In this document: positions 16,128 to 30,467 of the stretch, piece by piece
Numbering within the stretch: position 1 is the first letter of the stretch
How the letters are laid out: every line of letters begins with the position of its first letter
Source: Candidatus Methylomirabilis sp.
Lineage (GTDB): Bacteria > Methylomirabilota > Methylomirabilia > Methylomirabilales > Methylomirabilaceae
Assembly (NCBI GenBank): GCA_041498975.1
Contig: JBGQJI010000006.1
Location: forward strand, 1 to 35,176
Direction of reading: 5' to 3'
DNA length: 35,176 nt
The notes under the pieces: generated by a model
What the model was told of the DNA's origin: nothing
The model's input: only the letters and a program-made list of their open reading frames with translations
Database searches by the model: none
Made by a program: the position numbers and the translations under genes

Positions 16128-16158
16128 CTCGTACCTCCTGTCAGAGTCACAAAATGTG

Positions 16159-16284: not shown

Positions 16285-16602
16285 ATGTTCGCAAGAAAAG
16301 TGTGTCTGAAGCTACGTCCAGGAATGGCCGTGGCGTATTCCAGGATGCTGGAGAACGAAATCATCCCGATCCTACGGGAGCAGAAGGGGTTTAACGACGA
16401 GATTTCGTTCGTCTCAGGTGAGCGCGGCGAGGCCGTGGCCATCAGCCTGTGGGACGCGGCCGAAAGCGCAGAGGCGTATCATCGCGAGACGTACCCTGGC
16501 GTGCTGCGAGCGCTCGAAGGCCTGATCGACGGAGAGCCGCAGGTGAATACCTTCGCGGTCTCGAACTCGACCATCCACAAGATCCCGAACCTGCCCCGGT
16601 AG
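16285..16602 (+). CDS. ABM-like dimeric alpha/beta barrel protein
   Basis: RBS GGAGGGG; EIIPILREQKGF...AISLWDAAESAEAY pattern. Confidence 0.8.
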   Translation: MFARKVCLKLRPGMAVAYSRMLENEIIPILREQKGFNDEISFVSGERGEAVAISLWDAAESAEAYHRETYPGVLRALEGLIDGEPQVNTFAVSNSTIHKIPNLPR

Positions 16603-16627
16603 ACTTCCACCCTGGTTGTGAGCATGT

Positions 16628-16660
16628 GAGGGGGGGCACTTTCGCCCCCTCTTTCTTTTT
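16628..16660 (+). terminator. Intrinsic terminator
   Basis: GGGGGC-ACTTTC-GCCCCC stem-loop followed by TCTTTCTTTTT. Confidence 0.6.
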
Positions 16661-16740
16661 CCGCTAAGGTACTTGCTCCTCCTTTGTAAGGAGGGGCCAG
16701 GAAAGGTACTGCCGTGGCCTCTACCCCACCCAACCTCCCC

Positions 16741-17709
16741 TTACAAAGAGGAGGGATCTTCCGAGAGCAGGATGCCCTGTTTGCGCTTCTCCTCTTCGAA
16801 GACCTGGACCTTCTTGACGGCGTCTTTGATCGCTGGAAACGCTTTGACGAACTCCTCGCTGACCGTGGCGGCGGCCGCCAAGCCGATCTGGCGCGCCATC
16901 ATCAGCGCATTCGCTGGAGCCTGCCCCCGCACATGGTTGTTGAAGTAGATTAGGATCTTGGCCTCGCCTGTCGCCGCGATCTTTCTCACCTTCTCCGCAA
17001 ATGGCTTCAGCTCTTCTTCCGAGTAGAGATAGTCGTACCGCTCCTCGGCCGTCTCGTGCTTCCTCCACTTCTCCCGGTTTCTCCCGTGGAAGCGCAGGTA
17101 CATCAGCCGTTGCGGTTCCAGTTCCTGCTTGATCGTGCTCTTGAATTCCGGCATGTCGATGAAGGCCCATCCTGCGCCGGAGGAGGCGAGGAACTCCCTC
17201 GTGTCCTTGACATAGTCGCTCCAGGAGACATGGCGTAGCTCGACCGCCACGGGGTACTCCTTGAACTGCTTCAAGAGGGTCGAAAGGATCTCTTGATTGC
17301 CAGGCGTCCTCGAAAACCACTCGGAGAACTGGATCAACAGGCAGGCGAGCTTGCCTTCCTCGGCAATCGGGTTGATGCCTTGCTTGAAAGCGTCGTAATC
17401 CTGCTGCGTCACCTCCGGCTCAGCGCCGGTCGCCTTCTCGAACATCCCCGGATGCGTGAACTTCTGCCAGACCTTGATCGAGAACTCGAAATCCTGCGGG
17501 GTGATTCTGACCCAGGCCCTCGCGGTTCGAGGATCGATCAGTCGGTAAAAAGTTGAGTTCACCTCCACGGTGTTGAAGGCCTTGCTGTACAGCTCCAGCT
17601 CGTTCTTCGATTTGGCCGGATAGAAGATCCCGTTCCAGGTCCCCTCCCCTTTCGGATAGGACCAGCCTGAGGTGCCGATGCGCACATTCTTATTGACTGC
17701 TTTGTTCAT
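16741..17709 (-). CDS. DUF72 (YecE-like) protein, copy B
   Basis: IGTSGWSY, FNTVEVNSTFY, FSIKVWQKFTH, VELRHVSW, YLRFHGRN, YDYLYSEEEL, YFNNH; ATGA-coupled to the upstream DUF72. Confidence 0.93.
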   Translation of the reverse strand: MNKAVNKNVRIGTSGWSYPKGEGTWNGIFYPAKSKNELELYSKAFNTVEVNSTFYRLIDPRTARAWVRITPQDFEFSIKVWQKFTHPGMFEKATGAEPEVTQQDYDAFKQGINPIAEEGKLACLLIQFSEWFSRTPGNQEILSTLLKQFKEYPVAVELRHVSWSDYVKDTREFLASSGAGWAFIDMPEFKSTIKQELEPQRLMYLRFHGRNREKWRKHETAEERYDYLYSEEELKPFAEKVRKIAATGEAKILIYFNNHVRGQAPANALMMARQIGLAAAATVSEEFVKAFPAIKDAVKKVQVFEEEKRKQGILLSEDPSSL

Positions 17710-18524
17710 GCCTGTCCGTCGCGCGGGCGTGCGGTCACCCGGCCTGCCGGCTCATGAACTCTGCCTTGATCGGACGCCAGTTCGATCGAGAGCAGCCTTG
17801 CCATCTGTCGCACCGAGTCGGGGGAATGCCCGGCGTAATGATTGTTAAAGTAGCCATACACCTGTTGGACTGATGCCGGAAGCTGCCGGATTAAGGCCCC
17901 CCACTTCTCCATCCGCTCGGTCCTGTCGATCTGAATCCTGTCAAAAACCTTAACGTCCGCGCGGCGGCTCATCCACCTGATATAGGCAAATTCGGCGGTC
18001 ACTTGCGCCATCCTGGGCATGTAGTAGAGGTCCTGCATGCAGAAGGCCACATTATGGTCTCGCAGGAGCATGAAGAGCTCATCCGTAAGGAACTTTCTAT
18101 CCCTGACCTCGACCGCGAACCTGAAACCGGAGGGCAGTGTCTTGAGAAATGCCCTCAGGATCTCGAACTCCGTCACCTTGAACTGCGGCGGCAACTGAAC
18201 CACCAGGACTCCTAACTTCTCGCCCAGCAGGCTCATGTTGCCGACGAAGGCCGATAAAAGCTCGCCGCAATCTGCAAGTATCCGCTCGTGGGTGATCCCT
18301 TTGAAGAGTTTGGCCGAGAAGACAAACGTCGCCGGCGTGTGTGCATCCCATCGGCGTATGAGCTCCTTAGTCGGGATCCGGTAGTAGGTCGTATCAAGCT
18401 CGACGGTCGGAAAGATCCTGGAGTAATAGGCCAGATAGTCGGCCGGCTGCGTCCCCGGCGGATAGAACGGCCCGACCCAATCGTTGTGGGAGAAGCCTTG
18501 TGTTCCGAGTAGAATCTGACTCAT
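17706..18524 (-). CDS. DUF72 (YecE-like) protein, copy A
   Basis: LGTQGFS..W.GPFYP, FPTVELDTTYY, FSAKL...ITH, QLPP, AVEVR, YIRW, YFNNHYAGH. Confidence 0.93.
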   Translation of the reverse strand: MSQILLGTQGFSHNDWVGPFYPPGTQPADYLAYYSRIFPTVELDTTYYRIPTKELIRRWDAHTPATFVFSAKLFKGITHERILADCGELLSAFVGNMSLLGEKLGVLVVQLPPQFKVTEFEILRAFLKTLPSGFRFAVEVRDRKFLTDELFMLLRDHNVAFCMQDLYYMPRMAQVTAEFAYIRWMSRRADVKVFDRIQIDRTERMEKWGALIRQLPASVQQVYGYFNNHYAGHSPDSVRQMARLLSIELASDQGRVHEPAGRVTARPRDGQA

Positions 18525-18618
18525 CTGCCCTGGAAATGCCCCCTCACCCCCACCCTCTCCCCCGCAACCAGGGGCGAGGGATGAATGAGGGGAACAAGGA
18601 AAATCGACGAGGCCGCAG

Positions 18619-18766
18619 CGTCATTGCGAGGGAGCGGCGCGACCCCTTCGACACTACTCAGGGCAGGCTCCGCAATCTCAACAGGGTTCTAGGTTCCAAG
18701 TGCCGAGTTCCAAGTTCTAAGTAACGTGGAACCTGGAACGGCGAAGCTCAGTCGCTCGCAATGACA
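18619..18766 (+). repeat. 148-bp REP/MITE-like element, left arm of an inverted pair
   Basis: Reverse complement of 19683-19830 with 3 mismatches; GTCATTGCGAG...CTCGCAATGAC ends. Confidence 0.92.
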
Positions 18767-18790
18767 CTCTGAAGGGACGAGTGAAGTTGT

Positions 18791-19642
18791 TTAGTGTCCT
18801 ATCATGTCGCGGAGTGTCTTCTTTGCGAAACCGGGCGGGGGCTGGAACTCGGCGTCCGGGATCGCTCGGGTCTCCGCCTTAACGACCTCGATCGTCACTT
18901 GGCCTCCGGCCCGGTGGACCGTCCGAACCGGGTATCCCTCGCCCGCCAGCTTCCAGGCCGGATCGTCTGGGCGGAACCCATGTCGCCCCTGTGCACCTCC
19001 GCACCGCGGGGCCATCTTGGCCATTTCGGCCGAGAACCGCTCGAGCTTTTTGAGGTCCAGCTCTCGCCAGGCGGCCAAGGTCTTGGCAAGCCACATCTCC
19101 GACTCCAGTTTCCCGTCGATCAGCATATCGTACCGGACAGCCTGGTATCCCGCGATTGTGGCCTGTTGGCCCGTCTTCTCCACCTCGACCTTCGGCTCAC
19201 GACAGTCCTCTGGTGTCGGCGCGCTCTTGGGCATGTGGGAGCGCATCATCTCCTCCATCATCTTGCGCTGCTCGGCCGGCATATCTTTCATGTTCTCCTG
19301 CATCTGCTTCATCGCCTTCGCCATCTGTTCCGACGCCGCGTCCATCACGCCCTGCATCATCTGCCCGAACTCTTGCACTGTAGAGGCGACGTATTGCCCC
19401 TTCTTGTAATCAACCTGAGTGATGGTCTCGGCGTTCAGGTTCAGAATGAAGGCGTGGAGCGGTTGCCCATCCGTCCCTAACATGAGCATCTTCATCTGGT
19501 TGGTCTGAAGCATCACCTGCTGTTTGGCGCCCTCGCCTCCACCCTTCACCACCTGATCGATAACCCATCCCGCTCTGGCGGGGACGGGCCAGAGGATTGT
19601 GCTCGCGAGGATCGTGCCTGCAATTGCATGAGAGAGCAACAT
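18791..19642 (-). CDS. Secreted DUF4412-like protein
   Basis: RBS AAAGGAGG, signal peptide ending ARA-G, Met-rich helical insert, KTGQQATIAGY and IPDAEFQPPPGF motifs. Confidence 0.8.
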   Translation of the reverse strand: MLLSHAIAGTILASTILWPVPARAGWVIDQVVKGGGEGAKQQVMLQTNQMKMLMLGTDGQPLHAFILNLNAETITQVDYKKGQYVASTVQEFGQMMQGVMDAASEQMAKAMKQMQENMKDMPAEQRKMMEEMMRSHMPKSAPTPEDCREPKVEVEKTGQQATIAGYQAVRYDMLIDGKLESEMWLAKTLAAWRELDLKKLERFSAEMAKMAPRCGGAQGRHGFRPDDPAWKLAGEGYPVRTVHRAGGQVTIEVVKAETRAIPDAEFQPPPGFAKKTLRDMIGH

Positions 19643-19682
19643 GCCGAAACCTCCTTTCAACGGGTTATTGGATAACTTGGGC

Positions 19683-19830
19683 TGTCATTGCGAGCGACCA
19701 AGCTTCGCTGTTCCAGGTTCCACGTTACTTAGAACTTGGAACTCGGCACTTGGAACCTAGAACCCTGTTGAGATTGCGGAGCCTGCCCTGAGTAGTGTCG
19801 AAGGGGTCGCGCCGCTCCCTCGCAATGACG
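19683..19830 (-). repeat. 148-bp REP/MITE-like element, right arm of an inverted pair (overlaps polB 3' end)
   Basis: Inverted copy of 18619-18766. Confidence 0.92.
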
Positions 19831-22039
19831 GGCACTCCAGGATCAGCACTTTCAATCGCGCATAATCGTAGCCAAAGAACCACAACACCGATTCTGCGGC
19901 CTTCAGCAACAGCTCGGTGTACTTCTCGACATCGTAGCCAAGGCTGCCGTCGTAGAGGGCATACGCTTTCGCCTTCGAGACCTTGTCGTTGGCCCTGGAG
20001 TCCACGATCACGAGTTGGATCTCCTCTCCGGGAGAAAGATGGACGCCTCTGCTTGCAAGGTCCTTCGCGGCTTCCGAGAGGAGCGTATCGGTCTTGTATT
20101 CCATTGGCTCCTTGGAGAGCTGCCTGGTGATCGCCAGCTCTGCCAGCGGCACGCTGCCGCTCCGAAGCTCATCGACTTTTGCCCTCAGGTCATCGAGCAG
20201 GTCGGGGACACGCGCCTGGCACTCTTCATAGGTCCCTGTCTTCGAGAGCGCCGCAAGCATCGCTCGTTGCGCGCTCCTCACAAATCCCGGCGTGTCCGAG
20301 CGTCTGACCTCCAGGCCCCGGACCTTGATCGTGCCGTTCAAGAAGCGGCCGAAGTAACGGTTGGGAACGGGCGCCTTCGGCGACACCCTCGACGGCAGAA
20401 ACGCGATCCAATTGTACATCCCCTCGACGAGGATGGGAAGCTCGGTCTGCCGCGAGATGTCGGCAGCAAGCCGCTCGTAGTCCTGCAGCGTCGCGCCCGG
20501 CTTCTGCAGCCACATCGAATCGACGATCGCGTGGATGAGCGAGTACCCTGCCGCCTCCGCGATCTCCTTGGCGACCAGCAGTTTCTCGCGCGCATAGGCG
20601 GTGACCGCCTCGTGGCCTTCAAGCCGTCCGAAGCGCGCGTTCCGGTACCCCTGGTAGCCGAATGAGACGAGGCCAAGCCACTTCAGCGCGGACTGTCGCT
20701 TGTCATACAGCTCGCGCTGCTCCGCCGTGATGGCCTGTTTCATCAGCGTCTTGTAGATGCTCCGCCGCCGCAGCACCGGCTCCAGCGTCCGGGCCACCAG
20801 ACCCCGTCGCTTCGTGCAGAGGTTGTGACCGATCTCCGGGACCCTGTTCTCGGGACAGCAGGCGCACCCAACGGTCTCCTGTGAGATGTTGTACTTCGCC
20901 ATGATGCTGGGAAACATCGAGCTGAAATCCAGCTCGCAGACCTGCTCGTACAACCCGATGCGCGGCTGGAAGACCAGGCCCCCCTTGTCGATGAGCAGCA
21001 TCTGATTCCCGGTCTTGAACTCCTCCGGCAATCGCTTGCGCCAGGGGATCAGGTAGCCGTCGCGGAAGGCCAAGTCGAGCTGCATCGAGGAGACGCCCGT
21101 GCCGGGAGAGGTTCGCGCGCAGCGCTGTACCGGCAGCTTCGTGACCCGGGCGAGCTCGATCAGGCCGTCCAGACCGGTCTCGTCAACGGCGAACGAGTTC
21201 GCGACATCCAGGTGCCAGCGGCCGTGTAGGATCTGGGCACCCGCCCGATAGACGATCTTGCCATAGGTGAAGAAGCTCTTGGCCTTCCGGCTTTTGATCC
21301 CCGCCACGCTGTCCCTGTTGAGGGCAAGCTCTACGCCGTAAACGTCCGCCAGCCGCCGCAGCCTGGGAATGATGTACGAATCGCCGTACCGCGAGACGAT
21401 GACATCGGGGTCGTGAGTGATCAGCAAGGCGTTCAGGCTTTGCAGGAACTCCTCCCCCTCCTCCTCGAACACGAACTCGCGCTCATCGACAGACGCGACC
21501 AGCCGAGTGGTCCTGCTGTGGTTCGGATTGGCATCCTGCTCCATCCGCAGTTGAAGAAAGCGAAGCGGCGGGACGAGGTAGTGGATCTCCCATGGCGAGT
21601 CCAGGAGCTGGATCTCCCTGAGCCGCAAGCCCTCATCGTAGGCCAGCTCGCACTGCGCCAGGGGGAACAATCCCTTCTCGTAGAAATAGAGTTGCGGCAG
21701 CAGGATGTCGCAGTTGTAGAAGGTGATCTCCGGATTGAAACGGTGGGCGGCTTGAACGAGGGCGGAGAACCTGTCGAGCCTCGGCGTGCTGACTCGCAGG
21801 ACGGGGATAAAGCTGTTCGACAGGAGTTCCCTGCGCTCCGTCCACTCCGTCGTGATCGGCAGGCCCTGGCGCGACAGGTAGGACGCGCACTGCTTCAGCG
21901 CCGCGTGGGGGCCCCCCAGATAGAATGACGCCCAGTACGGATCAACCAGGCGGAGGCACCCCTGCTCGGTCTTGAGCCAGAGCACCATCCCGTCCCTGGA
22001 CGGATAGACGTCAAACAGCCAGCCCTTCTGTGCGCGCAA
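19757..22039 (-). CDS. Family B DNA polymerase of PolB2 type (degenerate motifs B and C)
   Basis: KGGLVFQP; motif A ELDFSSMFPSIM; motif B KWLGLVSFGY; motif C HAIVDS in place of YGDTDS; NRYFG..KVRGLEVRRSD; TTG start. Confidence 0.9.
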   Translation of the reverse strand: MRAQKGWLFDVYPSRDGMVLWLKTEQGCLRLVDPYWASFYLGGPHAALKQCASYLSRQGLPITTEWTERRELLSNSFIPVLRVSTPRLDRFSALVQAAHRFNPEITFYNCDILLPQLYFYEKGLFPLAQCELAYDEGLRLREIQLLDSPWEIHYLVPPLRFLQLRMEQDANPNHSRTTRLVASVDEREFVFEEEGEEFLQSLNALLITHDPDVIVSRYGDSYIIPRLRRLADVYGVELALNRDSVAGIKSRKAKSFFTYGKIVYRAGAQILHGRWHLDVANSFAVDETGLDGLIELARVTKLPVQRCARTSPGTGVSSMQLDLAFRDGYLIPWRKRLPEEFKTGNQMLLIDKGGLVFQPRIGLYEQVCELDFSSMFPSIMAKYNISQETVGCACCPENRVPEIGHNLCTKRRGLVARTLEPVLRRRSIYKTLMKQAITAEQRELYDKRQSALKWLGLVSFGYQGYRNARFGRLEGHEAVTAYAREKLLVAKEIAEAAGYSLIHAIVDSMWLQKPGATLQDYERLAADISRQTELPILVEGMYNWIAFLPSRVSPKAPVPNRYFGRFLNGTIKVRGLEVRRSDTPGFVRSAQRAMLAALSKTGTYEECQARVPDLLDDLRAKVDELRSGSVPLAELAITRQLSKEPMEYKTDTLLSEAAKDLASRGVHLSPGEEIQLVIVDSRANDKVSKAKAYALYDGSLGYDVEKYTELLLKAAESVLWFFGYDYARLKVLILECPSLRGSGATPSTLLRAGSAISTGF

Positions 22040-22054
22040 CTTTCTCCTCTAGGA
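22004..22054 (-). repeat. 51-bp direct repeat copy 1 (small-gene/polB junction)
   Basis: 47/51 identical to 23595-23645. Confidence 0.9.
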
Positions 22055-22187
22055 AGAGGACCGACATCCCTCGCCTGTCCTGAACTCAGTCGAAGCCTGT
22101 CCTGAGCTGAGTCGAAGGGCCTGCGCTGAGCCTTGTCGAAGCGGGCTTGTTATTGCGAGGCCGACGGAGTCGGCCGAAGCAATCTTG

Positions 22188-22378
22188 AGTTATACTTTTG
22201 ACTAATACGATGAGCCAAAAAAACAGCCCGACAGCCAAAGAGCGCCACCACGCTCTGAAGCGGCCCAGACGCGCCGGAATGCTCCAGCCCTTGGCCCAGA
22301 ACCTGCCAGCCACCGCAAGCCGCACGCAGGACCGGCATACCCAGGGCATGATAACCATCATCCTGAAGCCGCATAACG
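22188..22378 (-). promoter_or_regulatory. ~190-bp repeated promoter module copy 1, upstream of polB2
   Basis: About 90% identical by hand alignment to 24123-24316; minus strand reads T-tract, TGGCTC-17-TATAAC with TATTAGTCA 4 bp before the -10. Confidence 0.8.
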
Positions 22379-22449
22379 TTGCCGTTCACTCGGCCGAGGG
22401 GCGGCGCGGAGCGCCGCTCCCGAGGATCGGGTGCAACGGCTTGTTATGT
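22371..22449 (-). other. attC site
   Basis: Minus strand: ACATAAC-AAGCC-GTTGCACC...AGTGAAC-GGCAAC-GTTATGC with GC-rich central hairpin. Confidence 0.88.
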
Positions 22450-22635
22450 GTCTGATTCACGATCCTGGAGGTGCTTCTTAAGTTGGTCAATGTCAAGAGC
22501 CGGCCGTGTGCTGTGGATCATGGCGTGGCAGTTCGGGCAAACCGGAACTAGATCATTCACCGGGTCCACTACGTACACACCTTTGATTTCGGACAATGGC
22601 ACAAGGTGGTGGACGTGGATGTAGTTCTTCCCATA
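22444..22635 (-). pseudogene. C-terminal remnant of an HNH endonuclease (McrA-like)
   Basis: Translated by hand: YGKNYIHVHHLVPLSEIKGVYVVDPVNDLVPVCPNCHAMIHSTRPALDIDQLKKHLQDRESDT*, with the stop inside attC R''; no start codon. Confidence 0.8.
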
Positions 22636-23018
22636 GAGAATGGAAACGGCGAAAAAAACATGAAAACTGCTACAGCAGCGAACGCGATGACGATACTTGT
22701 GACTGGTAATACGAGTGGCGTATCTACAATCGACTTACCGATATAAAGAAGCAGAAACCATAAAATGGGATGCCCATCATATTGGGTCAGTCCGTAAAGG
22801 TCTAGCGGTGAAATGGCAGCGCGTGCTAACGATAATGCCCGAACTTCGTCACGCCCGAATTCATGCCGTGTCGTAGTGAAGATGACTCCAGTGAGCCATA
22901 TGCCAAGAATGGCGACTGTGACGATTGCAGACTTTGCTCCGGCGGACGAGGTATTAGATCGGGCCAGTGCTAGACACCGTCCCACAAAAGCTTTTGGTGA
23001 TATCGTCAAGCGGTTCAT
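22636..23018 (-). pseudogene. N-terminal remnant of a polytopic membrane protein (GT-C-like), first cassette after attI
   Basis: TM helix then HEFGRDE...YDGHPILWFLLL; lower GC; fused out of frame to the HNH remnant. Confidence 0.55.
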
Positions 23019-23056
23019 CGTTATTTCAGAATAATCTGGCCAATAGAGTATCGAGC

Positions 23057-23142
23057 GGCTAACTATTGATGCTGAAGCATTTCCCGGTCCTCACATTTCC
23101 CACGACTGCGGCGATTCTCTCGGGTTTTCGAAACCTTGTCAA
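23057..23142 (-). promoter_or_regulatory. Candidate Pc promoter and attI crossover downstream of intI
   Basis: Minus strand TTGACA (23137-23142)-17 bp-GAGAAT (23114-23119), then GTTAGCC at 23057-23063 ~40 bp ahead of the cassette ORF, with no attC hairpin. Confidence 0.5.
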
Positions 23143-23192
23143 GGTTCTCCGGGCCCCGCCATGGCCGATAAATACTGACCAGCATAATCCCA

Positions 23193-23579
23193 TTATGGCT
23201 GCAGCGAATTGGGCGCCACGGTCGATGCGTCTGCCGGACTACGGACGCCTCTCCCACCCCGATTCACAACATGGGTGTAAATCATGGTCGTGGTGACACC
23301 CCCGTGACCCAAGAGCTCTTGGACGGTCTGGATGTCATAGCCATCCTCGAGCAGGTCAGTGGTAAAGGTATGCCGCAATGTGTGGCGGCTCGCTGGTTTC
23401 ACAATCCCGGCCTTGAGCCTAACCTCTTTCATCGCCCGCTGGAGAACCGATTCGTGTGGGTGGTGACGGCGCCTTTTTCGCGCGAGCCGGTCGGTGTAGT
23501 GGTGTGAGGCTGGAAAGACCCACTGTCATCCCCATTCTTTGCCTGCGTTTGGATATTTGCGTTCACGGGCATTGGGCAG
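23193..23579 (-). pseudogene. intI: Integron integrase remnant (C-terminal part, internal stop)
   Basis: LPNARERKYPNAGKEWG*QWVFPAS...[15 protein letters not shown] (IntI-specific insertion), [29 protein letters not shown]-terminus missing. Confidence 0.92.
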
Positions 23580-23594
23580 GCTTACGCGGCCGAA

Positions 23595-23645
23595 ATAGAC
23601 GTCAAACAGCCAGCCCGTCTGCGCGCGCAACTTTCTGCTCCAGGA
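23595..23645 (-). repeat. 51-bp direct repeat copy 2 (vestigial polB start overlapping the small gene's end)
   Basis: Encodes LRAQTGWLFDVY, against LRAQKGWLFDVY at the polB start. Confidence 0.9.
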
Positions 23646-23871
23646 CTTTGAGTTCCTTCTTCAGCTCGATCAGCATGCAGAGCAGCATCGTCTCGAAGGG
23701 CTTGGGATTGCTGGCATAGGCGCCGGCCTGCATCTGGGTCTTCGGCGCGATGAAGAGCTCGTCGAAGACCTCCTGGTCGTCTTTGCGCAGCGCCCGCCGA
23801 AACCGCTTCCACTCGTCCTTCTCGAGCTCCTGCAGGATCAGCATGTTATAGGTCGGCAGCGTCCTCCCCAT
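23602..23871 (-). CDS. Small helical protein of the PolB2-associated family (arCOG07300-like)
   Basis: MGRTLPTY...EWKRFRRALRKDDQEVFDELF...NPKPFETMLLCMLIE; RBS GAGAGG. Confidence 0.8.
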   Translation of the reverse strand: MGRTLPTYNMLILQELEKDEWKRFRRALRKDDQEVFDELFIAPKTQMQAGAYASNPKPFETMLLCMLIELKKELKVLEQKVARADGLAV

Positions 23872-23909
23872 GGTTTACACCTCTCTCCCGTACGCACTCA
23901 CTAATGTGA

Positions 23910-24093
23910 TGTCATTGCGAGGCCGACAAGGTCGGCTGAAGCAATCTCGCGACTCGGGGCAGGCTGCGCAATCTACCCGCCCAACGGATCACAGGCGAGA
24001 TTGCTTCGCTTCGCTCGCAATGACACCGCGTGTCGGATTGCCGCGCTCCCTTCGACGAGGCTCGGGGCAGGCCTTCCAGTCGCTCGCAATGAC
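23910..24093. repeat. Cluster of GTCATTGCGAG/CTCGCAATGAC REP-like palindromes
   Basis: GTCATTGCGAG..GAAGCAATCT...AGATTGCTTCG..CTCGCAATGAC and a further copy; related units at ~22150 and ~30197. Confidence 0.75.
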
Positions 24094-24122
24094 GATGTCG
24101 CGACATGCAATGTGTTTGCGAT

Positions 24123-24316
24123 AGTTATACTGTTGACTAATACCATGAGCCAAAAAAAGGGCTCGAAGGCCAAAGCGCGCCACCACGCTCTGAAGCGGCT
24201 CAGAGGCGCCGGAATGTTCCAGCCCTTGGCCCAGAGAACCTGCCAGCCACCGCAAGCAGCACGCAGAACCGGCATACTCAGGGCATGATACCCATCATCC
24301 CTGAAGCCGCGTAACG
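24123..24316 (-). promoter_or_regulatory. ~190-bp repeated promoter module copy 2, upstream of the small gene
   Basis: Direct repeat of 22188-22378; TATTAGTCA-4 bp-TATAAC. Confidence 0.8.
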
Positions 24317-24345
24317 CGATGCCGCTCAGCGACGGCCCGTTAGGC
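24309..24345 (-). other. Internally deleted attC-like site
   Basis: Minus strand GCCTAAC-GGGCC-GT..GCTGAGC-GGCATCGC-GTTACGC; R'' matches the DUF418 cassette start (TAGGCAG). Confidence 0.6.
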
Positions 24346-24439
24346 AGCGTCTTCTCGCGAGTCTTCCTGCCGCCTCGGCATCCTGAATAGCTGGCAGGGC
24401 AGCGCGACCTTAAGCGGACCGCGAGATAGCCCCAAGTCT

Positions 24440-25735
24440 TCAGACGACGGCTGCCGGCCCGCTTGAGCCGCTCGATTGTGCGAGCCGCATCGGCTGGAAC
24501 CGGGCGTAGGTCAGTGTCCGCCACAGCCACTCGACCGGTCCGAAGCGGAAGCGACCGAGCCACCAGCGGCTCCAGACGATCTCCGCGCCGAAAAGCGCCA
24601 GCGTGAACAGGATCCCGATGGCAGATCCGAATTTCTGGTAGAGACCCAACCCGTAACCAAAAAAGACCGATGCGCAGAGGAACCACTGCATGAGGTAGTT
24701 GGTGAGCGCCATTCGCCCCGGCCAAGCCAGCAGGCCCAGTCTTGTTCTCCATCGCCGGCTCTGCGCCATGAGGAGAAGCATCGCGGAGGCATAGCCCAAA
24801 CTGACCGCAAAGCCGCCGACAAGCACCAGAGAGCGCTGGAGGATCCAGCCGGCTGGAGGCGCGACTTCCTCGACCGACAGCATCACAAAGAGGGTTCTCC
24901 CGACCAAACCGATTGCGAAACCCGACCAGAGCACTCGCCGGAGGAACGGCAGATGGGCCGATGTGCTGTCGAAGATTCCGCGGTGAACGGCATAGAGCCC
25001 GATCAAGAACATCGTGAACACGTTGGCGAGCTCGGCTGCATAGAAGTTCCAACCCGAGAAGGTCGCCACGAATTTGTCCCACCGAAGGCCGACAAGCTCC
25101 GTGTAGCTGCCCGTTCTTTCTATCCGACGAGCGCGCCGCACACGCTCCCGGCGCGCCTCAGTCTCGTCGCGCTCCAGCGCACGCACCGTCTCTGCGTCGG
25201 CACCCTGGAGCAAAGCGGCTTGGCGCGTCTCGACGAGGTGGCGCGTCACGCCCGGCGCCGTCGACGCAACGACGAGGCTCAGGGCGGCGCAGATAAGTAT
25301 CGTCCTCGTGGACCGGTGCCGAAAGAGCATCAACGGGTAGCCCATGAGTGCGTAACGAATCAGGATCGGCCGATCCATGATGAAGAATTGCTGCATGACG
25401 CCAATACCCAGCAGCACGCCGAGTCGGCGCGCGTAGATCGGAATGAACGGCGCGCCGCGCGCGCGGGCGCGAGACACCTGGATGGCAAAGCCGACCCCGA
25501 ACAAAAGCGAAAACAGCGGATAGAACTTGTTTGTGGCGAAGAGCTCGATCAGCCAGAGCGCCGTCCTGTCGGCACTCGAATGACGGCCAAGAAAGGCATT
25601 CATGTCGACGAGGATGATTCCGAAGAGCGCGAAACCGCGCAGGATATCCACCGTCTCGATCCGCTCGCCTGGCTCAACGGGCGCAAGCTCGCCTCGGCAT
25701 GACAACTCCCCTGCGACTCCGCTGGTAGTGCACAT
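24440..25735 (-). CDS. DUF418 (YeiB-like) membrane protein, gene cassette
   Basis: RIETVDILRGFALFGI, KFYPLFSLLFGVGF, GRMALTNYLMQ, FRFGPVEWLWR. Confidence 0.9.
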   Translation of the reverse strand: MCTTSGVAGELSCRGELAPVEPGERIETVDILRGFALFGIILVDMNAFLGRHSSADRTALWLIELFATNKFYPLFSLLFGVGFAIQVSRARARGAPFIPIYARRLGVLLGIGVMQQFFIMDRPILIRYALMGYPLMLFRHRSTRTILICAALSLVVASTAPGVTRHLVETRQAALLQGADAETVRALERDETEARRERVRRARRIERTGSYTELVGLRWDKFVATFSGWNFYAAELANVFTMFLIGLYAVHRGIFDSTSAHLPFLRRVLWSGFAIGLVGRTLFVMLSVEEVAPPAGWILQRSLVLVGGFAVSLGYASAMLLLMAQSRRWRTRLGLLAWPGRMALTNYLMQWFLCASVFFGYGLGLYQKFGSAIGILFTLALFGAEIVWSRWWLGRFRFGPVEWLWRTLTYARFQPMRLAQSSGSSGPAAVV

Positions 25736-25819
25736 TTATCTATCCTCTCCGTGCACGGTTTCGGGAATGACGGACTCGGATCCCCCGCAGCGGGTGTGAC
25801 TGCGCTCTGATCGACCTCT

Positions 25820-25909
25820 GCCTAGCTTGGCGCTGAGCGGCCGCCGGCCGAGCACGCCCGGAAAAGACGAGCCGCTTCTCCGCCGGTCCGCTCCAGCGCC
25901 TGGTTGGGT
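25820..25909 (-). other. attC site (R' mutated GTT>GCT)
   Basis: ACCCAAC-CAGGC-GCTGGAGC...GCTCAGC-GCCAA-GCTAGGC. Confidence 0.8.
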
Positions 25910-25913
25910 TGCG

Positions 25914-26201
25914 CTATTTCTCCTCGCCCGGCTGCGGCGTGTCTCGGTTGAGCCTCTTCTGATTCTCGGCAGCCCACTCCGCCTGCGCCCGTTCCGTTCG
26001 CTCGATGATCTCCTGGCACTTCTCCGCCGTCAGGGACATTTCGCTGCACCGTTGCTGGTATGCAGGGTCGTTCGGGCGCTTGCAGCAGAAATACTCCGGC
26101 AAGGGCAAGAACGCCGTGCTGCTTGCCGGGACGGCGACCACAGCGAGCGCCGCCATGGCCGCGACGAAACGCACCGTGAGACAGTAAAGTCTCGAACGCA
26201 T
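25914..26201 (-). CDS. Small secreted Cys-containing hypothetical protein, gene cassette
   Basis: RBS GAAGGAGG, signal peptide, CC...C...C; lies between two attC sites. Confidence 0.7.
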   Translation of the reverse strand: MRSRLYCLTVRFVAAMAALAVVAVPASSTAFLPLPEYFCCKRPNDPAYQQRCSEMSLTAEKCQEIIERTERAQAEWAAENQKRLNRDTPQPGEEK

Positions 26202-26317
26202 CAGGGCACCTCCTTCCCCGTTGGGGCCACGCTGAATGCGAGCGTCGTCGGCGAGTAGCTCCGGCGAGGCCCTTGCGCTGCACTCATGTGTGCAGCACGC
26301 TGACCCCGTCAAGCGCA

Positions 26318-26380
26318 ACCTAACGTGTGCCGTTAACGGGCGCCCGCTTCCGGGCGTCCCGGTTGAACAACCGGTTAGAG
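26318..26380 (-). other. attC site
   Basis: CTCTAAC-CGGTT-GTTCAACC...GTTAAC-GGCACAC-GTTAGGT. Confidence 0.88.
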
Positions 26381-26381
26381 C

Positions 26382-26702
26382 TCATGATGCACCTTGATTC
26401 CCACCCATACGTAGCCGGGAATAGACCACATACCGAATTATGCCGCCGACGAGAAGACAAGCCGGGAATATCACCAGTGAGTAGATTGCTGACACCACGA
26501 GCCACCACGCCGAATCGGGACCGGATGCCATCTCTTTGCGCAAATAAATGGTAGTCACAATGGACAATGCTACAGCGCATCCGACAACAAGAGCATCAAA
26601 TATGCGGATGCTCTTAGCTCCATCTCTGCCAGGGCGGAAGCGAAAATACACCCAGAGTGACACGCCCAGAACTGGAAGGAGGATTGCAAACGCAACAATC
26701 AT
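26382..26702 (-). CDS. Small 3-TM hypothetical protein, gene cassette
   Basis: ATG just after GTTAGAGCTCAG; the cassette start GTTAGAG complements its own R'' CTCTAAC. Confidence 0.75.
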   Translation of the reverse strand: MIVAFAILLPVLGVSLWVYFRFRPGRDGAKSIRIFDALVVGCAVALSIVTTIYLRKEMASGPDSAWWLVVSAIYSLVIFPACLLVGGIIRYVVYSRLRMGGNQGAS

Positions 26703-26707
26703 CTGAG

Positions 26708-26772
26708 CTCTAACGTTCCGCAACAGTTGCAGGTCGCGAAAGCGGACGGCCGCCTGCGTACGGCTGTTAGGC
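26708..26772 (-). other. attC site (imperfect)
   Basis: GCCTAAC...GCAGG...CCTGCAAC...GTTAGAG. Confidence 0.7.
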
Positions 26773-26787
26773 GGCCGTCGGAGCGGC

Positions 26788-27240
26788 TCAAAGCCAACGC
26801 CTGACCTTGCTCTTGTAGTCACGGTATGCATCGCCGAAGATTCGCTCCAGTGTTTTCTCTTCATGAGGGATAAAGACGATACTCAGGACGATGAAGAAAG
26901 CGATTGGTGCAAGAAACATAGGTAGCGAACCAACCCAGACGGCAACTCCAGTCAGCATGAGGATGATTCCTAAATACATCGGATTTCGCGAGAAACGGAA
27001 CGGACCGTCGGCGACTAAAGTACTCGGCTCGTCCGTGGGACGAATAGGTGTTTTCTTCTCCTGGAACAGCTTCCACGCCCAGATCATGACCGCAAATCCT
27101 GCAATAATGCCTATTGAACCCAAGAGCGGCATGGAAAAACGACGCCCGATGTTTTCAGGTACAAGCAGATGAAGGCCGAAACTCACAGCAAGAAGGGCAA
27201 AGGCGATGCTAGGCGGTTTCAGTTCTACAAGGTTCATCAT
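26788..27240 (-). CDS. Isoprenylcysteine carboxyl methyltransferase/PEMT family protein, gene cassette
   Basis: LVADGPFRFSRNPMYLG, IPHEEKTLERIFGDAYRDYKSKVRRWL. Confidence 0.9.
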   Translation of the reverse strand: MMNLVELKPPSIAFALLAVSFGLHLLVPENIGRRFSMPLLGSIGIIAGFAVMIWAWKLFQEKKTPIRPTDEPSTLVADGPFRFSRNPMYLGIILMLTGVAVWVGSLPMFLAPIAFFIVLSIVFIPHEEKTLERIFGDAYRDYKSKVRRWL

Positions 27241-27254
27241 TGGCAGGCCAATTC

Positions 27255-27312
27255 GCCTAAGGCTACGCTTCAGCCGCGCGGGTACCGCGTCGGCTGCAAG
27301 CGCTTGTTCGGC
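27255..27312 (-). other. attC site (R' mutated GTT>CTT)
   Basis: GCCGAAC-AAGCG-CTTGCAGC...GCTGAAG-CGTAGC-CTTAGGC. Confidence 0.85.
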
Positions 27313-27483
27313 TTACCTGTTTCTTTGTTCATCGATATGCCTCAACTCGGAAAGCACCCCATGGCCCGCGTAGAACAAATTAGTTGGGCATTTGTCATAT
27401 TCATCCCTGCATCCGACGGCATCACATGCGATAGCCGAAAAAGGGTGATACCGAATCATAAACCCCCTGAAGCTCATCCTTCG

Positions 27484-27876
27484 TCATTCCCGAATAATCG
27501 AGCCGACGATAAGACCGCCCAATATGGCCTCCACCAAAGAACCTAAAAACCAGACCAGCGCCATGTGATATGGAATGGGCATCACGGAGTAACTTCCGTA
27601 GCCCATCGATACTCCCGTACCCAGCCCAAACCAAAGACCATATTTCAGGCCAGTCGCTACCCCTCTTTGTGAGAAAAACTGCGAATAGATACAGACAAAG
27701 GCGAGGGCGGCGATCAACACCGAAAGGTGCAAGACGGACATCTTCATCTCGCCCATTGGCCGCCACAGCGACGCCGTCGCCTCGTAGGTGGAACGAAGGA
27801 CCACTCCGTGAATGACGAAATCCACCGCGGACCACGCGACGAACACAGCAAGGACCGAGAGGATCACCTTCTTCAT
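27484..27876 (-). CDS. 4-TM hypothetical membrane protein (DUF1761-like)
   Basis: RBS GGGAGGAG before MKKVIL; four hydrophobic helices. Confidence 0.75.
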   Translation of the reverse strand: MKKVILSVLAVFVAWSAVDFVIHGVVLRSTYEATASLWRPMGEMKMSVLHLSVLIAALAFVCIYSQFFSQRGVATGLKYGLWFGLGTGVSMGYGSYSVMPIPYHMALVWFLGSLVEAILGGLIVGSIIRE

Positions 27877-28013
27877 CACTGCTCCTCCCTTCTCGAAGAG
27901 CGCTGCCATCGACACGTCATCGTCTGATCATGATCACCTTCCGGAGTCCACTCCTGGCTCGCTCGGGGTAGATTACCAGCACGGCCGCGCCGCGATGGGC
28001 CAACAGTGGTCAC

Positions 28014-28766
28014 CTAGTCGTACAGCAACACGCCGCCCTCCGGTGACGGGAAGCCATCGTCCCCAGCGAAGGCCCACAGGTACGCCTTGCTAAGGGTCCT
28101 GCCGTTCGTTTCCCCGGAGAAGCTGTGGTCGCAGTGAGGCACGCCCCGTGCGTACACGGCTCTGGCGCTCTTGGCCAGCGACGGCATCATCATGGCCAGG
28201 ATGGCCGCTGCCGGGTCCTGCTCTCCGTACGCCACGTACACCTCACCTGTGTAGCGCCGCACGCCGCTCAGAAAGAACCAATCCGTGCTATCGTAGGCAG
28301 AGACCAGAAGGACCTTGTTGATCGCAGCGAACAGCGGCGCCACTGCAACCACTACAGAACCTCCGGCGGAGAAGCCGGCCAGATACACTTCGGGTTCCCT
28401 GCCGCCACACAGCCGCATGGCCTCCTTCAGGCAGTGTTCCACGAGCGCAGCCATACTTTCAACAAAGATGAGGTTCCAGCTCGCATCCCGGTACGAGTAG
28501 GGCTCATTCGGGTACACGAACTGGGCGTCCGGCCAGGGCGGGTTGAAACTCACCAGCGTGGCGATGCCACGGTCTTGCAGGTGCTCCCCAAGGCGCACGT
28601 ACCGATCTCTGGCCCCCTCCTTGACTTCACCCGCTCCGGGCGCCTGAATGATGAGCTTGCCCGATCTGGTCGGGAACGCGATGAAGGGCACCTCGTAGGG
28701 AACAGTTTGCCCGTGGTAGCCCGTCGTCGTAAGCTGGAGGGAACCCGCCTCTATTGCCACGTTCAC
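28014..28766 (-). CDS. Alpha/beta-hydrolase fold protein
   Basis: Nucleophile elbow GFSAG, YGEQD, CDHSF. Confidence 0.75.
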   Translation of the reverse strand: MNVAIEAGSLQLTTTGYHGQTVPYEVPFIAFPTRSGKLIIQAPGAGEVKEGARDRYVRLGEHLQDRGIATLVSFNPPWPDAQFVYPNEPYSYRDASWNLIFVESMAALVEHCLKEAMRLCGGREPEVYLAGFSAGGSVVVAVAPLFAAINKVLLVSAYDSTDWFFLSGVRRYTGEVYVAYGEQDPAAAILAMMMPSLAKSARAVYARGVPHCDHSFSGETNGRTLSKAYLWAFAGDDGFPSPEGGVLLYD

Positions 28767-28892
28767 CGCCTCACCAAGTCCAAAGACACCTTGGCCTGCT
28801 CATCCCGGATTGAACGGCCCCGTGGGAGAAGAAGGCCGCCGGAGCTGTCGAGCTATCCTCCGGCAAGCCGCCCTGAAAGTCAATCCGCGTGT

Positions 28893-29567
28893 CTAATCCT
28901 TGCTTGTAGAGCTTCTCCTGAATGTATTCCTGAGCGGGACTCCTGCACCTGGGAACGTGTCGGCCGCCCTGACCGGCTTTTCCAAGTAGAGCGTGGAGGC
29001 GTCCAGCTTGATCACTTTATCGGCCATGGCCATCAAGACGTCCAGCAGCCTGTCCCGGTCGGGCAGTCGCACGGCCGGAGCGGGGCAAACCACCAGCACG
29101 AGCGAGCCGGCATCGGCGAGCGCGCGCAGATGGGCCGTCGCTTTCCTGAAAACCCTCCAGGCCTCCCGAAGCTCGACGTCTTCATCGTAGAGATTGTCCA
29201 GAAAGCCAGAGGCGACCAGGATCCGGGAGGCGTAGGTCTTCAAGGCTTGGGAGATGCGCTCGGTGATGAGGGCTTCGAGTTGATGAACGGTGAAGGTCCG
29301 CGAGATATGGATGCGGTCGAGCAGCTCTTCGGGTGGCCTGTTAAGTCGTGTCGCAACCTCAGCGATCAGAAAGGGATTGAAGGCGTTGGCAGAGTCGATG
29401 AAGACGACGTGCTGTCCGGAGGCCAGCAGCGAGGCGATCGCCCGCAGCGAATAGGTGAGGACGGCCTGGCTGCCGTAGAGCAGGACGAGGCCGCCCTGAG
29501 CCCTCCAGCGGTTGAGGGAAAGGGTGAATTGGGAAAAGACAAGCCTGGGAGGCAGTACGCGTTCCAC
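28893..29567 (-). CDS. RecA/RadA-like protein with degenerate Walker A (ImuA-like role inferred)
   Basis: LVLLYGSQAV at the P-loop position (no GKT), VVFIDSANAFNP, LLDRIHISRTFTVHQL; starts 2 nt after the lexA stop. Confidence 0.82.
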   Translation of the reverse strand: MERVLPPRLVFSQFTLSLNRWRAQGGLVLLYGSQAVLTYSLRAIASLLASGQHVVFIDSANAFNPFLIAEVATRLNRPPEELLDRIHISRTFTVHQLEALITERISQALKTYASRILVASGFLDNLYDEDVELREAWRVFRKATAHLRALADAGSLVLVVCPAPAVRLPDRDRLLDVLMAMADKVIKLDASTLYLEKPVRAADTFPGAGVPLRNTFRRSSTSKD

Positions 29568-29569
29568 GA

Positions 29570-30163
29570 TTAAATCCTGCGAAAGACACCGATGACCTTC
29601 CCTAAGATCCTGAAGCGCTTGTCTTTCCCGATCCTGATGGGCGTGAAGTCCTCATTTTCAGGCTTGAGGATCACCGTCTTGCCGTCCATCTGGAAGCGCT
29701 TCACCGTGACCTCGTCATCGACCATCGCCACCACGATCTCGCCGGGGAGCGCTTCACGCTGCACCTTCACGAGCACGAGGTCGCCATCGAAGATGCGGGC
29801 GTCCCGCATGCTGTCACCCTGAACCCTCAGCAGGAAGGTCTCCCCGCCTCCGGTCCACTCCCGGGGGAGCGGGTAACTGGTCTCGATGTTCTCCTCGGAC
29901 AAGACCGGTTTGCCGGCGGCCACCTGACCGAGCAGCGGCGCCAGGGCAACCCGCTGTTCCTGACGCAGCTCGATGGCCCGCGACCGCTTGCGCCCGCGCG
30001 TGAGATACCCGGCCCGCTCGAGACGCTCAAGATGGTACTGGACCCCCCGGAGGTAGATCTTCAGATGCTGGGCGATTTCGCGCAGCGTCGGGGACGCGCC
30101 GTGCCTGGCCTTATAGTCAGCAATAAACTTGAGGATCTGCCGCTGCCGCTCCGTCAGTTCCAT
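29570..30163 (-). CDS. lexA: LexA repressor
   Basis: LTERQRQIL, PTLREIA, VAAG cleavage site, GDSM (Ser), VTVKR (Lys), ILGKVIG. Confidence 0.96.
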   Translation of the reverse strand: MELTERQRQILKFIADYKARHGASPTLREIAQHLKIYLRGVQYHLERLERAGYLTRGRKRSRAIELRQEQRVALAPLLGQVAAGKPVLSEENIETSYPLPREWTGGGETFLLRVQGDSMRDARIFDGDLVLVKVQREALPGEIVVAMVDDEVTVKRFQMDGKTVILKPENEDFTPIRIGKDKRFRILGKVIGVFRRI

Positions 30164-30262
30164 CGGATCCTCTTACCTCCATTCCCTCTTCACGCTGTCA
30201 TTGCGAGCCGCGGGCGCGGCAATCTCGCTCTTTGCCCCATTACGGAAGCGCCTACTACCAAT

Positions 30263-30291
30263 ATTATACATATGACTAATAAGTCAAGCAA
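30263..30291 (-). promoter_or_regulatory. lexA promoter with palindromic operator (candidate LexA box)
   Basis: Minus strand TTGCTT-17 bp-TATAAT; the spacer carries TGACT-tatt-AGTCA (30273-30286). Confidence 0.78.
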
Positions 30292-30313
30292 AAAAAACTT
30301 CATCGAGATTCGC

Positions 30314-30391
30314 ATCTAACGGCAAGCTTCACCGGCAGCAAGCAAGCGCTGCGCCGCTTGCCTGCTGTCCGAGTGGAAGCGAACGTTGGGG
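30314..30391 (-). other. attC site
   Basis: CCCCAAC-GTTCG-CTTCCACT...GGTGAAG-CTTGCC-GTTAGAT. Confidence 0.88.
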
Positions 30392-30467
30392 TGTCATCCT
30401 GGGCACTCGCGTCCGAGACCGACGAAGACCGAATAGCACCAAGAGACCGATCGCTATCGCACTGACG

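Follow-up and report, generated by a model that had tools for sequence, protein, structure and literature searches.

The window analysed here is the entire contig C6 (35,176 nt) of a Candidatus Methylomirabilis sp. assembly of 2.68 Mb, which comprises 241 contigs, is 84.9% complete and is labelled G000 below. Six focal genes lie on its minus strand between positions 16741 and 30163: lexA, a gene for an ATPase-dead RadA homologue (iRadA), a gene for a small partner protein (PPB2), a family-B DNA polymerase gene (PolB2) and two genes of the DUF72 family. The first four are read here, with a probability of roughly 80%, as a bacterial PolB2 mutasome cassette whose ancestral operon has been cut into three units, each with the same promoter and candidate LexA operator. 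The genes and promoter blocks of the cassette are listed below.

30260..30287, minus strand: lexA promoter with candidate LexA operator, made up of a T-run, TTGACT and the core TATTAGTCATATGTATAA at 30264-30281 (motif search, genus conservation).
29570..30163, minus strand: lexA; TIGR00498 at 207 bits against a cut-off of 111 (1.9e-61), with Peptidase_S24 (PF00717) and LexA_DNA_bind (PF01726).
28893..29567, minus strand: iRadA, an ATPase-dead RadA/Rad51 homologue of 224 amino acids (Pfam Rad51, 2.3e-5) that starts 2 nt after lexA.
24123..24300, minus strand: promoter element E, copy A, made up of a T-run, TTGGCT and the core TATTAGTCAACAGTATAA at 24125-24142, about 250 nt 5' of PPB2 (repeat and motif search).
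23602..23871, minus strand: PPB2, the arCOG07300-type small partner of 89 amino acids, with an MGRT N-terminus, upstream of PolB2.
22188..22363, minus strand: promoter element E, copy B, 90% identical to copy A, with the core TATTAGTCAAAAGTATAA at 22190-22207, about 150 nt 5' of PolB2.
19757..22039, minus strand: PolB2, an exonuclease-dead family-B polymerase of 760 amino acids (PF00136, 1e-33).

The lexA gene is present as a single copy, with one match in the assembly, and its translation carries VAAG|K, which we take to be the LexA cleavage site, along with GDSM and VKRF, which presumably hold the catalytic residues. It is found in 164 of 201 sampled genomes of the phylum, a tally that takes in five unpublished genomes, and it also occurs in congeners without PolB2. 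The adjoining iRadA protein matches the RadA family models at about 1e-5, far under their cut-offs, and its best solved relative is an archaeal RadA (3.8e-4). Its Walker A motif is gone, because GK[ST] occurs nowhere in the translation, and ILVASG stands in place of the LLIVDS of RadA; the protein is a RadA/Rad51 homologue with both Walker A and Walker B motifs destroyed. PPB2 has no match among Pfam families. Its MGRT N-terminus (M1, G2, R3, T4) and an FRRAL motif are invariant in 11 of 11 aligned homologues, all of which are encoded directly 5' of PolB2 genes, and it is 84% identical to the protein of the related genome G003.

Family models point to the PolB2, or bacterial group G2, type for the polymerase. 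The best of these are NF004416 (391 bits, 7.5e-117) and NF004418 (345 bits), whereas PolB1/B3-type models reach at most 159 bits and Pol II models 32-39 bits. Motif A reads ELDFSSMFPS, of which LDFSSMFPS aligns to LDFSSMYPN of a solved archaeal PolB (chain 5mdn), and IHAIVDS aligns to IYGDTDS of the solved archaeal enzyme, so that the first Asp of the DxD motif is replaced and the second kept. At Exo I, the motif on which exonuclease inactivation was judged, LRME replaces the FDIE of 5mdn and the Asp is lost. D351, K352, D371 (motif A) and D507 are invariant in 10 of 10 sequences. The pair D351-K352 (IDKGG) is assumed to be equivalent to 253-DK-254 of S. islandicus, which contacts the PPB2 arm. 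The nearest relatives of the window's polymerase are 84-91% identical and lie on Candidatus Methylomirabilota or Methylomirabilis contigs. A PolB2 that is 91% identical to the window's stands on a 2411-nt contig (G155:C156) of a genome placed in another family of the class, and this odd placement may reflect a binning error or a recent transfer.

The first-pass annotation of this DNA had proposed a LexA-controlled PolB2 mutasome with an inactive RecA-like protein and a small partner. The family models, motifs and gene order bear out a LexA-linked mutasome of the PolB2 type, in which the polymerase is accompanied by a RadA homologue with a dead ATPase and a small protein of the arCOG07300/PPB2 type. 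The profile search agrees with its assignment of the polymerase (391 bits for NF004416, compared with at most 159 for PolB1/B3-type and at most 39 for Pol II models), and the alignment to the solved archaeal PolB confirms its observation that the motif A Asp (DFSSMFPS) is kept while HAIVDS stands for YGDTDS. The six genes lie at the positions it gave and are co-oriented, as it described (minus strand, 16741-30163), and the gap it reported between lexA (29570-30163) and the RecA-like gene (28893-29567) is indeed 2 nt.

The six focal genes are non-contiguous and do not form one operon. Three interruptions lie between them: a block of about 4.9 kb, made up of unrelated genes on the same strand, between the RadA-like and small genes, a 1540-nt insert (22055-23594) between the small gene and polB, and a DUF4412 gene that separates polB from the DUF72 pair. 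The order iRadA-PPB2-PolB2 is kept, though interrupted. A survey of the 201 sampled phylum genomes at an E-value of 1e-20 or better, in a tally that includes the unpublished genome G151, detected PolB2 in 37. Eighteen related loci (16 from the phylum sample, one from Blastocatellia and one from Nitrospirae) were then compared using the window proteins as tblastn queries, and all four genes were detected in nine of them. Six of the nine are compact operons; of the remaining three, G003 has two genes between iRadA and PPB2, and two loci have an insertion between PPB2 and PolB2. At L044, L045, L049 and L051-L053, PolB2 was found without detected partners, which may be too divergent as tblastn targets or lie beyond the ends of contigs that are too short. 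Because the compact layout prevails in six of the nine four-gene loci, the compact lexA-iRadA-PPB2-PolB2 operon is taken to be ancestral, with the iRadA/PPB2 and PPB2/PolB2 junctions as its breakpoints. In the Nitrospirae contig (L005, 6972-8728), the PolB2 gene that follows PPB2 is itself broken, with approximately residues 93-255 missing and changes of frame.

The separated units are linked by a shared promoter block. Upstream regions of lexA across the genus have in common a T-run, a -35 box TTGAC and then TAGTC-N4-GTATAAT; this block is conserved in seven of the eight other genus genomes compared, with the G202 copy further upstream, and the copy in G008 was found separately. In the 2.68-Mb assembly, the core TATTAGTC-N4-GTATAA occurs at three sites, before lexA, PPB2 and PolB2. 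In the search as TAGTCNNNNGTATA with zero mismatches, these are the only sites in the whole assembly, all of them in the window, on the gene strand and 5' of these genes. A longer form with 14 specified bases, TATTAGTCNNNNGTATAA, gives three window matches at one mismatch or fewer, compared with 0.00 in 100 shuffles. The three sites count as two independent instances, because those of PPB2 and PolB2 lie in the duplicated 176-nt element E, which has just two copies in the genome (90% identity). The element-E block is also found 5' of PPB2 in G003 and 5' of PolB2 in G080, in G155 and on the metagenome contigs L113 and L115.

Across 20 genus genomes, the pattern TAGTCNNNNGTATAA has 26 matches, compared with 6 for a reversed control. 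Twenty-four of these sites are 5' of lexA (13 sites in 12 genomes), imuA (3), PPB2 or PolB2 (5), C-terminal remnants of iRadA with an adjacent integrase gene (2) or, in an imuA cassette, a radical-SAM-pair-A-like gene (1), while one of the other two precedes no recognised gene and one is apparently a chance match. A looser scan of the loci gave 26 distinct sites in two classes. The lexA-type sites read TTTTTTCTTGAC-GTAK-TAGTC-N4-GTATAAT, and the mutasome-type sites, common to imuA, PPB2 and PolB2, read TTTTTTTGGCTCA-N3-TATTAGTC-N4-GTATAAY. The TATTAGTC-N4-GTATAA block is read as the putative LexA operator of the genus, set in a sigma-70-like promoter. Another candidate operator, the palindrome TGACTTATTAGTCA, has a single occurrence in the genome at two or fewer mismatches and was rejected in favour of the genus-conserved TTAGTC-N4-GTATAA core. 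A consensus promoter and terminator scan of positions 16000-30600 picked up the lexA promoter and gave counts no higher than shuffles (7 vs 4.3 and 11 vs 12.0).

Several side observations concern regulation in relatives. The radical-SAM-pair-A-like gene, of 252 amino acids, matches 'radical SAM mobile pair protein A' (TIGR04471, 5e-28, under the cut-off) and lies between lexA and imuA in several congeners (in G008, L092 4808-5566); on G006:C144 (L111) it has its own operator-bearing promoter copy. Four recA promoters of the genus (L057-L060, of which L058 is G000:C17, about 90-130 nt 5' of recA at 963) share TGACAAC-N17-GTTGTCA across the -35 and -10 positions, and recA may be controlled by something other than the candidate LexA box. 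In another family of the phylum (L046, L050 and L054), an inserted, divergently oriented gene separates PPB2 from PolB2, and no second copy of the lexA-type palindrome stands ahead of PolB2. An inverted repeat lies about 50 nt 5' of PolB2 at these loci; it is TGACAGG-N3-CCTGTCA in L046, unlike that lineage's lexA palindrome, and L050 and L054 have a similar but different sequence at the same position.

The same type of motif is common to lexA and to imuA-imuB-dnaE2 cassettes in congeners, and the two polymerase systems largely alternate in the genus. Among the 20 genus genomes, five have PolB2 only (one as a contig-edge fragment), eight have an ImuB-like gene only, one (G080) has both, five have neither and one has only a 68-residue PolB2 remnant. 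In the complete, PolB2-less genome G008, lexA is followed by the radical-SAM-pair-A-like gene, a gene resembling imuA (NF033429, 2e-6), one resembling imuB, and dnaE2, which scores 1144 bits on NF004225 (cut-off 939). The order in G046 is lexA, a hydrolase-like gene, an operator, imuA-imuB-dnaE2 and, after about 13 kb, DUF4412-DUF72b. That of the window is lexA-iRadA, a hydrolase-like gene, four further genes, an operator, PPB2, an operator, PolB2 and DUF4412-DUF72a-DUF72b. The imuA-imuB-dnaE2 genes of G046 thus occupy the interval between the same flanking genes as the window's PPB2 and PolB2. In the window's own assembly, at 84.9% completeness, neither a Y-family polymerase (PF00817) nor an ImuB-like gene was found, and no DnaE2 scored above the cut-off, the sole strong DnaE-type match reaching 736 bits against 939. 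Since none of the three was found, PolB2 may be the sole specialised lesion-bypass polymerase of this genome, subject to the same caveat of completeness. The near-complementary distribution behind the same promoter type within one genus speaks for a functional equivalence of the two mutasomes. An analogy with imuA-imuB-dnaE2 had been drawn at first pass, and it holds.

The remaining features of the region, which include the sequences that interrupt the cassette, are as follows.

24440..28766, minus strand: five co-oriented non-repair genes that split the operon, namely an alpha/beta-hydrolase-like gene, a gene for a 143-amino-acid membrane protein, a PEMT-family gene, a gene for a 160-amino-acid membrane protein and a DUF418 gene (Pfam search).
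23595..23645, minus strand: vestigial copy of the PPB2/polB2 junction, with a ribosome-binding site, a TTG start and the first 12 polB2 codons; a 51-nt repeat, 92% identical to 22004-22054.
22364..23594, minus strand: the part of the 1540-nt insert outside the promoter element, with a C-terminal tyrosine-recombinase fragment (23193-23432; PF00589, 5e-16), a 149-amino-acid membrane-protein fragment and an HNH-like scrap.
18619..19830, minus strand: DUF4412 block with 148-nt inverted repeats (18619-18766 and 19683-19830), the arms 98% complementary.
18791-19660, minus strand: DUF4412 gene (Pfam), with an N-terminal hydrophobic stretch that on reading is a putative signal peptide.
17706..18524, minus strand: DUF72a, a lineage-specific insertion (PF01904, 8e-61).
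16741..17709, minus strand: DUF72b, conserved across the genus (PF01904, 2.5e-57).

The interval between the RadA-like gene and the small gene is occupied at 24124-28766 by repeat elements and the five non-repair genes. Third-position guanine-plus-cytosine (GC) content in the PEMT-family gene and the two small membrane-protein genes (26382-27915) is 0.55-0.68, far below the 0.77-0.86 of the cassette genes, which suggests that part of the intervening block is of foreign origin. At the same position G003 has two different genes, for an O-methyltransferase and an NAD-dependent reductase, and the hydrolase-like gene is also found downstream of lexA in G046. The insert between PPB2 and PolB2 consists, apart from the fragments listed, of element E copy B and small repeats. 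It is flanked by the 51-nt junction duplication, and this explains what the first-pass annotation had described as a vestigial overlap joining the small gene to the polB start: a 34-codon open reading frame (ORF; 23526-23630) that overlaps the 3' end of the small gene begins MRAQTGWLFDVY, a copy of the polB start at 92% identity, and continues as junk after 12 codons. The same layout of PPB2, vestigial start, insert and PolB2, including the junction duplication, is present in G080.

By tblastx, the integrase fragment of the insert has 64% identity to the integrase gene next to the iRadA remnant in G007. Homologues of the fragment (23193-23591 region) adjoin operator-fronted C-terminal iRadA remnants in two PolB2-less genomes, G007 (C10) and G008 (C1:1428861), and this homology across the three genomes points to a single recombinase-bearing element as the probable agent of the rearrangements. 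The 148-nt repeat of the DUF4412 block occurs about 20 times in the assembly, whole or in part, with further pieces in the window at 15299-15369 and 15486-15527, and has the look of a miniature inverted-repeat transposable element. Short units resembling repetitive extragenic palindromic (REP) sequences, built around ATTGCGAG...CTCGCAAT hairpins, fill the leaders of lexA, PPB2 and PolB2 (30170-30215, 23910-24106 and 22092-22185) and are found on dozens of contigs, with about 35 matches for one unit.

Despite these interruptions, the cassette genes are under purifying selection. The ratios of nonsynonymous to synonymous substitution rates (dN/dS) measured against G003 are 0.19 for lexA, 0.23 for iRadA, 0.23 for PPB2 and 0.16 for PolB2, and those of PolB2 are 0.19 against G080 (dS 0.48), 0.15 against G097 and 0.16 against G155. 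As G080 shares the split, its low value indicates that PolB2 has been constrained since the insertion.

A number of observations weigh against a working, LexA-controlled cassette. The recA promoter lacks the TTAGTC-N4-GTATAA block and has the inverted repeat TGACAAC-N17-GTTGTCA instead, so that the LexA regulon would be unusually small if the block is the LexA box. Parts of the cassette have been lost in relatives, with an in-frame TGA in the iRadA of G006 and remnants in G007, G008 and G004. The window's cassette itself contains scars of mobile elements, and the last 25 or so codons of polB are encoded by one arm of the 148-nt inverted repeat. The absences of ImuB, DnaE2 and PolY are provisional because the assembly is only 84.9% complete, and the complementary distribution may reflect only a few events, because genomes of one genus are not independent.

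Two alternatives can be built on such observations. One is that the block is no LexA operator and serves a different regulator, as promoter or operator, or that recombination has spread it as a promoter module. It would account for the missing block at recA and for the integrase genes or fragments that adjoin several copies; the block is, moreover, only an imperfect palindrome (12 of 16 positions), and it overlaps the spacer and -10 region, so its conservation may in part be that of promoter sequence. Autoregulation is the hallmark of LexA boxes, however, and 13 of the 26 exact sites (12 genomes) stand before lexA itself. Apart from lexA, mutasome cassettes and their remnants alone have the block ahead of them, and LexA is the sole regulator gene that consistently accompanies the cassettes. 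Other families of the phylum have other palindromes between the -35 and -10 boxes of the lexA promoter, as expected for diverging LexA operators. On balance another regulator or a wandering promoter module is decidedly unlikely. The other alternative, that the cassette is a decaying relic which was broken up, is no longer co-expressed and persists by chance, draws on the three insertions and mobile-element scraps within it, on the lost translational coupling of PPB2 and PolB2, on the damaged iRadA genes of G006 (in-frame TGA), G007 and G008 (remnants) and on the presence of PolB2 in only 6 of 19 congeners, two of the six being the contig-edge fragment and the 68-residue remnant. Against it, all four ORFs are intact, dN/dS is 0.15-0.23 even when the split-sharing G080 is included, the duplicated junction retains the ribosome-binding site and start codon of polB2, and a second copy of the promoter element stands directly before PolB2 in G000, G080, G155, L113 and L115. 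Survival by chance is accordingly given long odds, and the split but co-regulated cassette is preferred.

The DUF72 genes call for a separate judgement. They score 206 and 195 bits on PF01904 against a gathering cut-off of 25.3, are 25-30% identical to each other and overlap by ATGA, an overlap noted at first pass that can be read directly in the sequence. Orthologues of DUF72b with 74% identity or more are present in 17 of 19 congeners, of which 11 have no PolB2 match and one more has only the 68-residue remnant; its dN/dS against G097 is 0.12. PolB2-DUF4412-DUF72b is contiguous in G097, G121 and G041, DUF4412-DUF72b is adjacent in the PolB2-less G046, and in G003 DUF72b is about 10 kb from PolB2 on the opposite strand. 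For DUF72a, no orthologue was found in any of the 19 congeners, and G097 lacks the segment 17709-18790, which comprises this gene and one repeat arm. Among 80 metagenome loci with DUF72a relatives, three contigs have the window's PolB2-DUF4412-DUF72a-DUF72b layout at 87% identity. The other 77 (38-53% identity), 43 of which include 3 kb or more of flanking DNA to one side, showed PolB2, iRadA, PPB2 or lexA in no case. Conversely, no DUF72 gene was found near any of the 18 other PolB2 loci within the available flanks of up to about 9 kb on each side, in a tblastn search in which, as a control, the two paralogues detect each other. No copy of the operator motif was found before the DUF72 genes.

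The first-pass annotation had taken the two DUF72 proteins for extra subunits of the PolB2 mutasome. The pair is co-oriented 3' of PolB2 with no strong terminator predicted between, the layout recurs on the three metagenome contigs, and DUF72 is enriched near PolB2 in the available text of Timinskas 2025 (PMC11791011), at 119 of 1823 neighbourhoods. Subunit status is nevertheless not supported, because DUF72b is spread through the genus with or without PolB2 (17 of 19 congeners, mostly without, and in G003 far off on the other strand), DUF72a is a lineage-specific insertion (0 of 19 congeners), no operator copy precedes the pair, and the survey of linkage came out negative in both directions (0 of 18 other PolB2 loci with a DUF72 gene, 0 of 77 DUF72a-like loci with a cassette gene). 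A DUF4412 gene also intervenes, and the published pentamer models, as far as the text available describes them, need no DUF72 (PMC11791011). The chance that the two are subunits is very small. A milder proposal, compatible with the cassette reading, is that DUF72a and DUF72b are TIM-barrel damage-processing nucleases, similar to UV-damage endonuclease (UVDE) or endonuclease IV, that are co-transcribed from the PolB2 SOS promoter and act in the same pathway. Both proteins match the solved DUF72 proteins TM1631 and EF0366, and TM1631 is predicted, in the sections available, to be a DNA-repair endonuclease (PMC3828134, PMC4939058). The same portion of Timinskas 2025 (PMC11791011) likens DUF72 to UV-damage endonuclease and reports its enrichment near polB2, often directly adjacent, in many phyla and once as a tandem pair in an archaeon. 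In the window the genes run in one direction with short gaps, and the ATGA overlap of DUF72a and DUF72b hints at translational coupling. The lack of an operator copy and the absence of the association from the other phylum loci examined (0 of 18) speak against the proposal, as does the DUF72 literature searched, whose available text yielded no biochemical function of any DUF72 protein; we consider it unlikely, though still worth entertaining. The DUF72 genes are best regarded as neighbours and not as parts of the complex, possibly read through from the PolB2 promoter. A looser functional tie of DUF72 to PolB2 has been published (119 of 1823 neighbourhoods) and may apply here too, and for the lineage of the window the question is narrowed to a neighbour with no sign of partnership found.

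Under the preferred reading of a split PolB2 mutasome cassette, insertions have cut a compact lexA-iRadA-PPB2-PolB2 operon into three transcription units, each of which retains a sigma-70-like promoter with TATTAGTC-N4-GTATAA to which LexA is predicted to bind. DNA damage would lead to self-cleavage of LexA and thereby to joint de-repression of the three units. PolB2, iRadA and a trimer of the presumably helical PPB2 would then assemble as modelled in the literature, and the complex would extend DNA beyond lesions in an error-prone manner. The copying of the operator along with the split of the operon speaks for selection on the coordinated damage control of the subunit genes. More tentatively, and with somewhat less than even confidence, we suggest that the LexA circuit of this genus is near-minimal, consisting of lexA and one mutasome; that PolB2 and ImuA-ImuB-DnaE2 are interchangeable modules behind TTTTTTTGGCTCA-N3-TATTAGTC-N4-GTATAAY, in at least one case in the same slot; and that the operator was copied upon the split so that every piece stayed under SOS control. 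If so, the genus would offer a natural swap experiment in which two unrelated polymerase machines do the same job.

The mutasome itself has already been published, and because the system is described the window adds one more example of it. In the portions of the literature available, lexA-iRadA-arCOG07300-PolB2 in bacteria was described by Makarova 2014 (PMC4104785), and Timinskas 2025 (PMC11791011) named the PolB2 mutasome and its parts iRadA, PPB2 and PolB2, modelled a PolB2:iRadA:PPB2(3) pentamer, inferred a single archaea-to-bacteria transfer and counted lexA in 108, DUF72 in 119 and SRAP in 134 of 1823 neighbourhoods. A congeneric polymerase is flagged there as included in the published PolB2 tree, and a 2026 survey names the bacterial group G2/PolB2 (PMC12926913, in the part available). 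The window matches this arrangement, with lexA ahead of the three core genes in unchanged order, and it shares the MGRT N-terminus of PPB2, IVD in place of DxD, a dead exonuclease and an iRadA without ATPase motifs. In the accessible part of the supplement to PMC11791011, Ca. Methylomirabilis limnetica is assigned to group 4, with LexA, iRadA, two other genes, PPB2 and PolB2 and the motif HAIVDSMWL. These nine residues are identical in the window, whose 61-residue DxD region by reading differs at 3 positions; its intervening genes, in contrast, number five instead of two and are of other kinds. Further differences of the window are the second break, between PPB2 and PolB2, and the duplication of the promoter/operator element so that each piece has a copy. 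The available text of the published PolB2 mutasome accounts makes no mention of operator sequences or of alternation with ImuABC. New are the triple candidate SOS box, the anatomy of a split with operator duplication, the genus-level swap with ImuABC and the purifying selection on the cassette genes. The box is a concrete candidate for Methylomirabilota, and a search for literature that pairs Methylomirabilis with LexA found incidental mentions only.

E. coli Pol II (PolB) is an SOS-inducible bacterial family-B polymerase, but it is a single subunit with active proofreading; Pol II models score 32-39 bits on the window protein compared with 391 for NF004416, and no Pol II chain is among the best 60 of the 71 PDB matches of the window polymerase. 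A further relative in kind is Dpo2 of S. islandicus, also a family-B enzyme once predicted to be inactive, which according to the text available is damage-inducible, is needed for damage-induced mutagenesis and extends past mismatches and lesions as a translesion extender (PMC7390963, PMC8764526). Dpo2 is archaeal, however, and in the available account is controlled by Orc1/Cdc6 and not by LexA (PMC11791011). ImuABC offers a functional parallel, being an error-prone polymerase under LexA control that is built of several subunits, among them an inactive one of the RecA fold. It differs in that its catalytic subunit is of the C family and its scaffold is a dead Y-family protein; PolB2 is not homologous to DnaE2, nor PPB2 to ImuB. 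The ImuABC genes can be dispersed over several loci, with an SOS box at each (PMC3901139). In congeners of the window they stand behind its promoter/operator type, and those of G046 fill the chromosomal slot that PPB2 and PolB2 have here.

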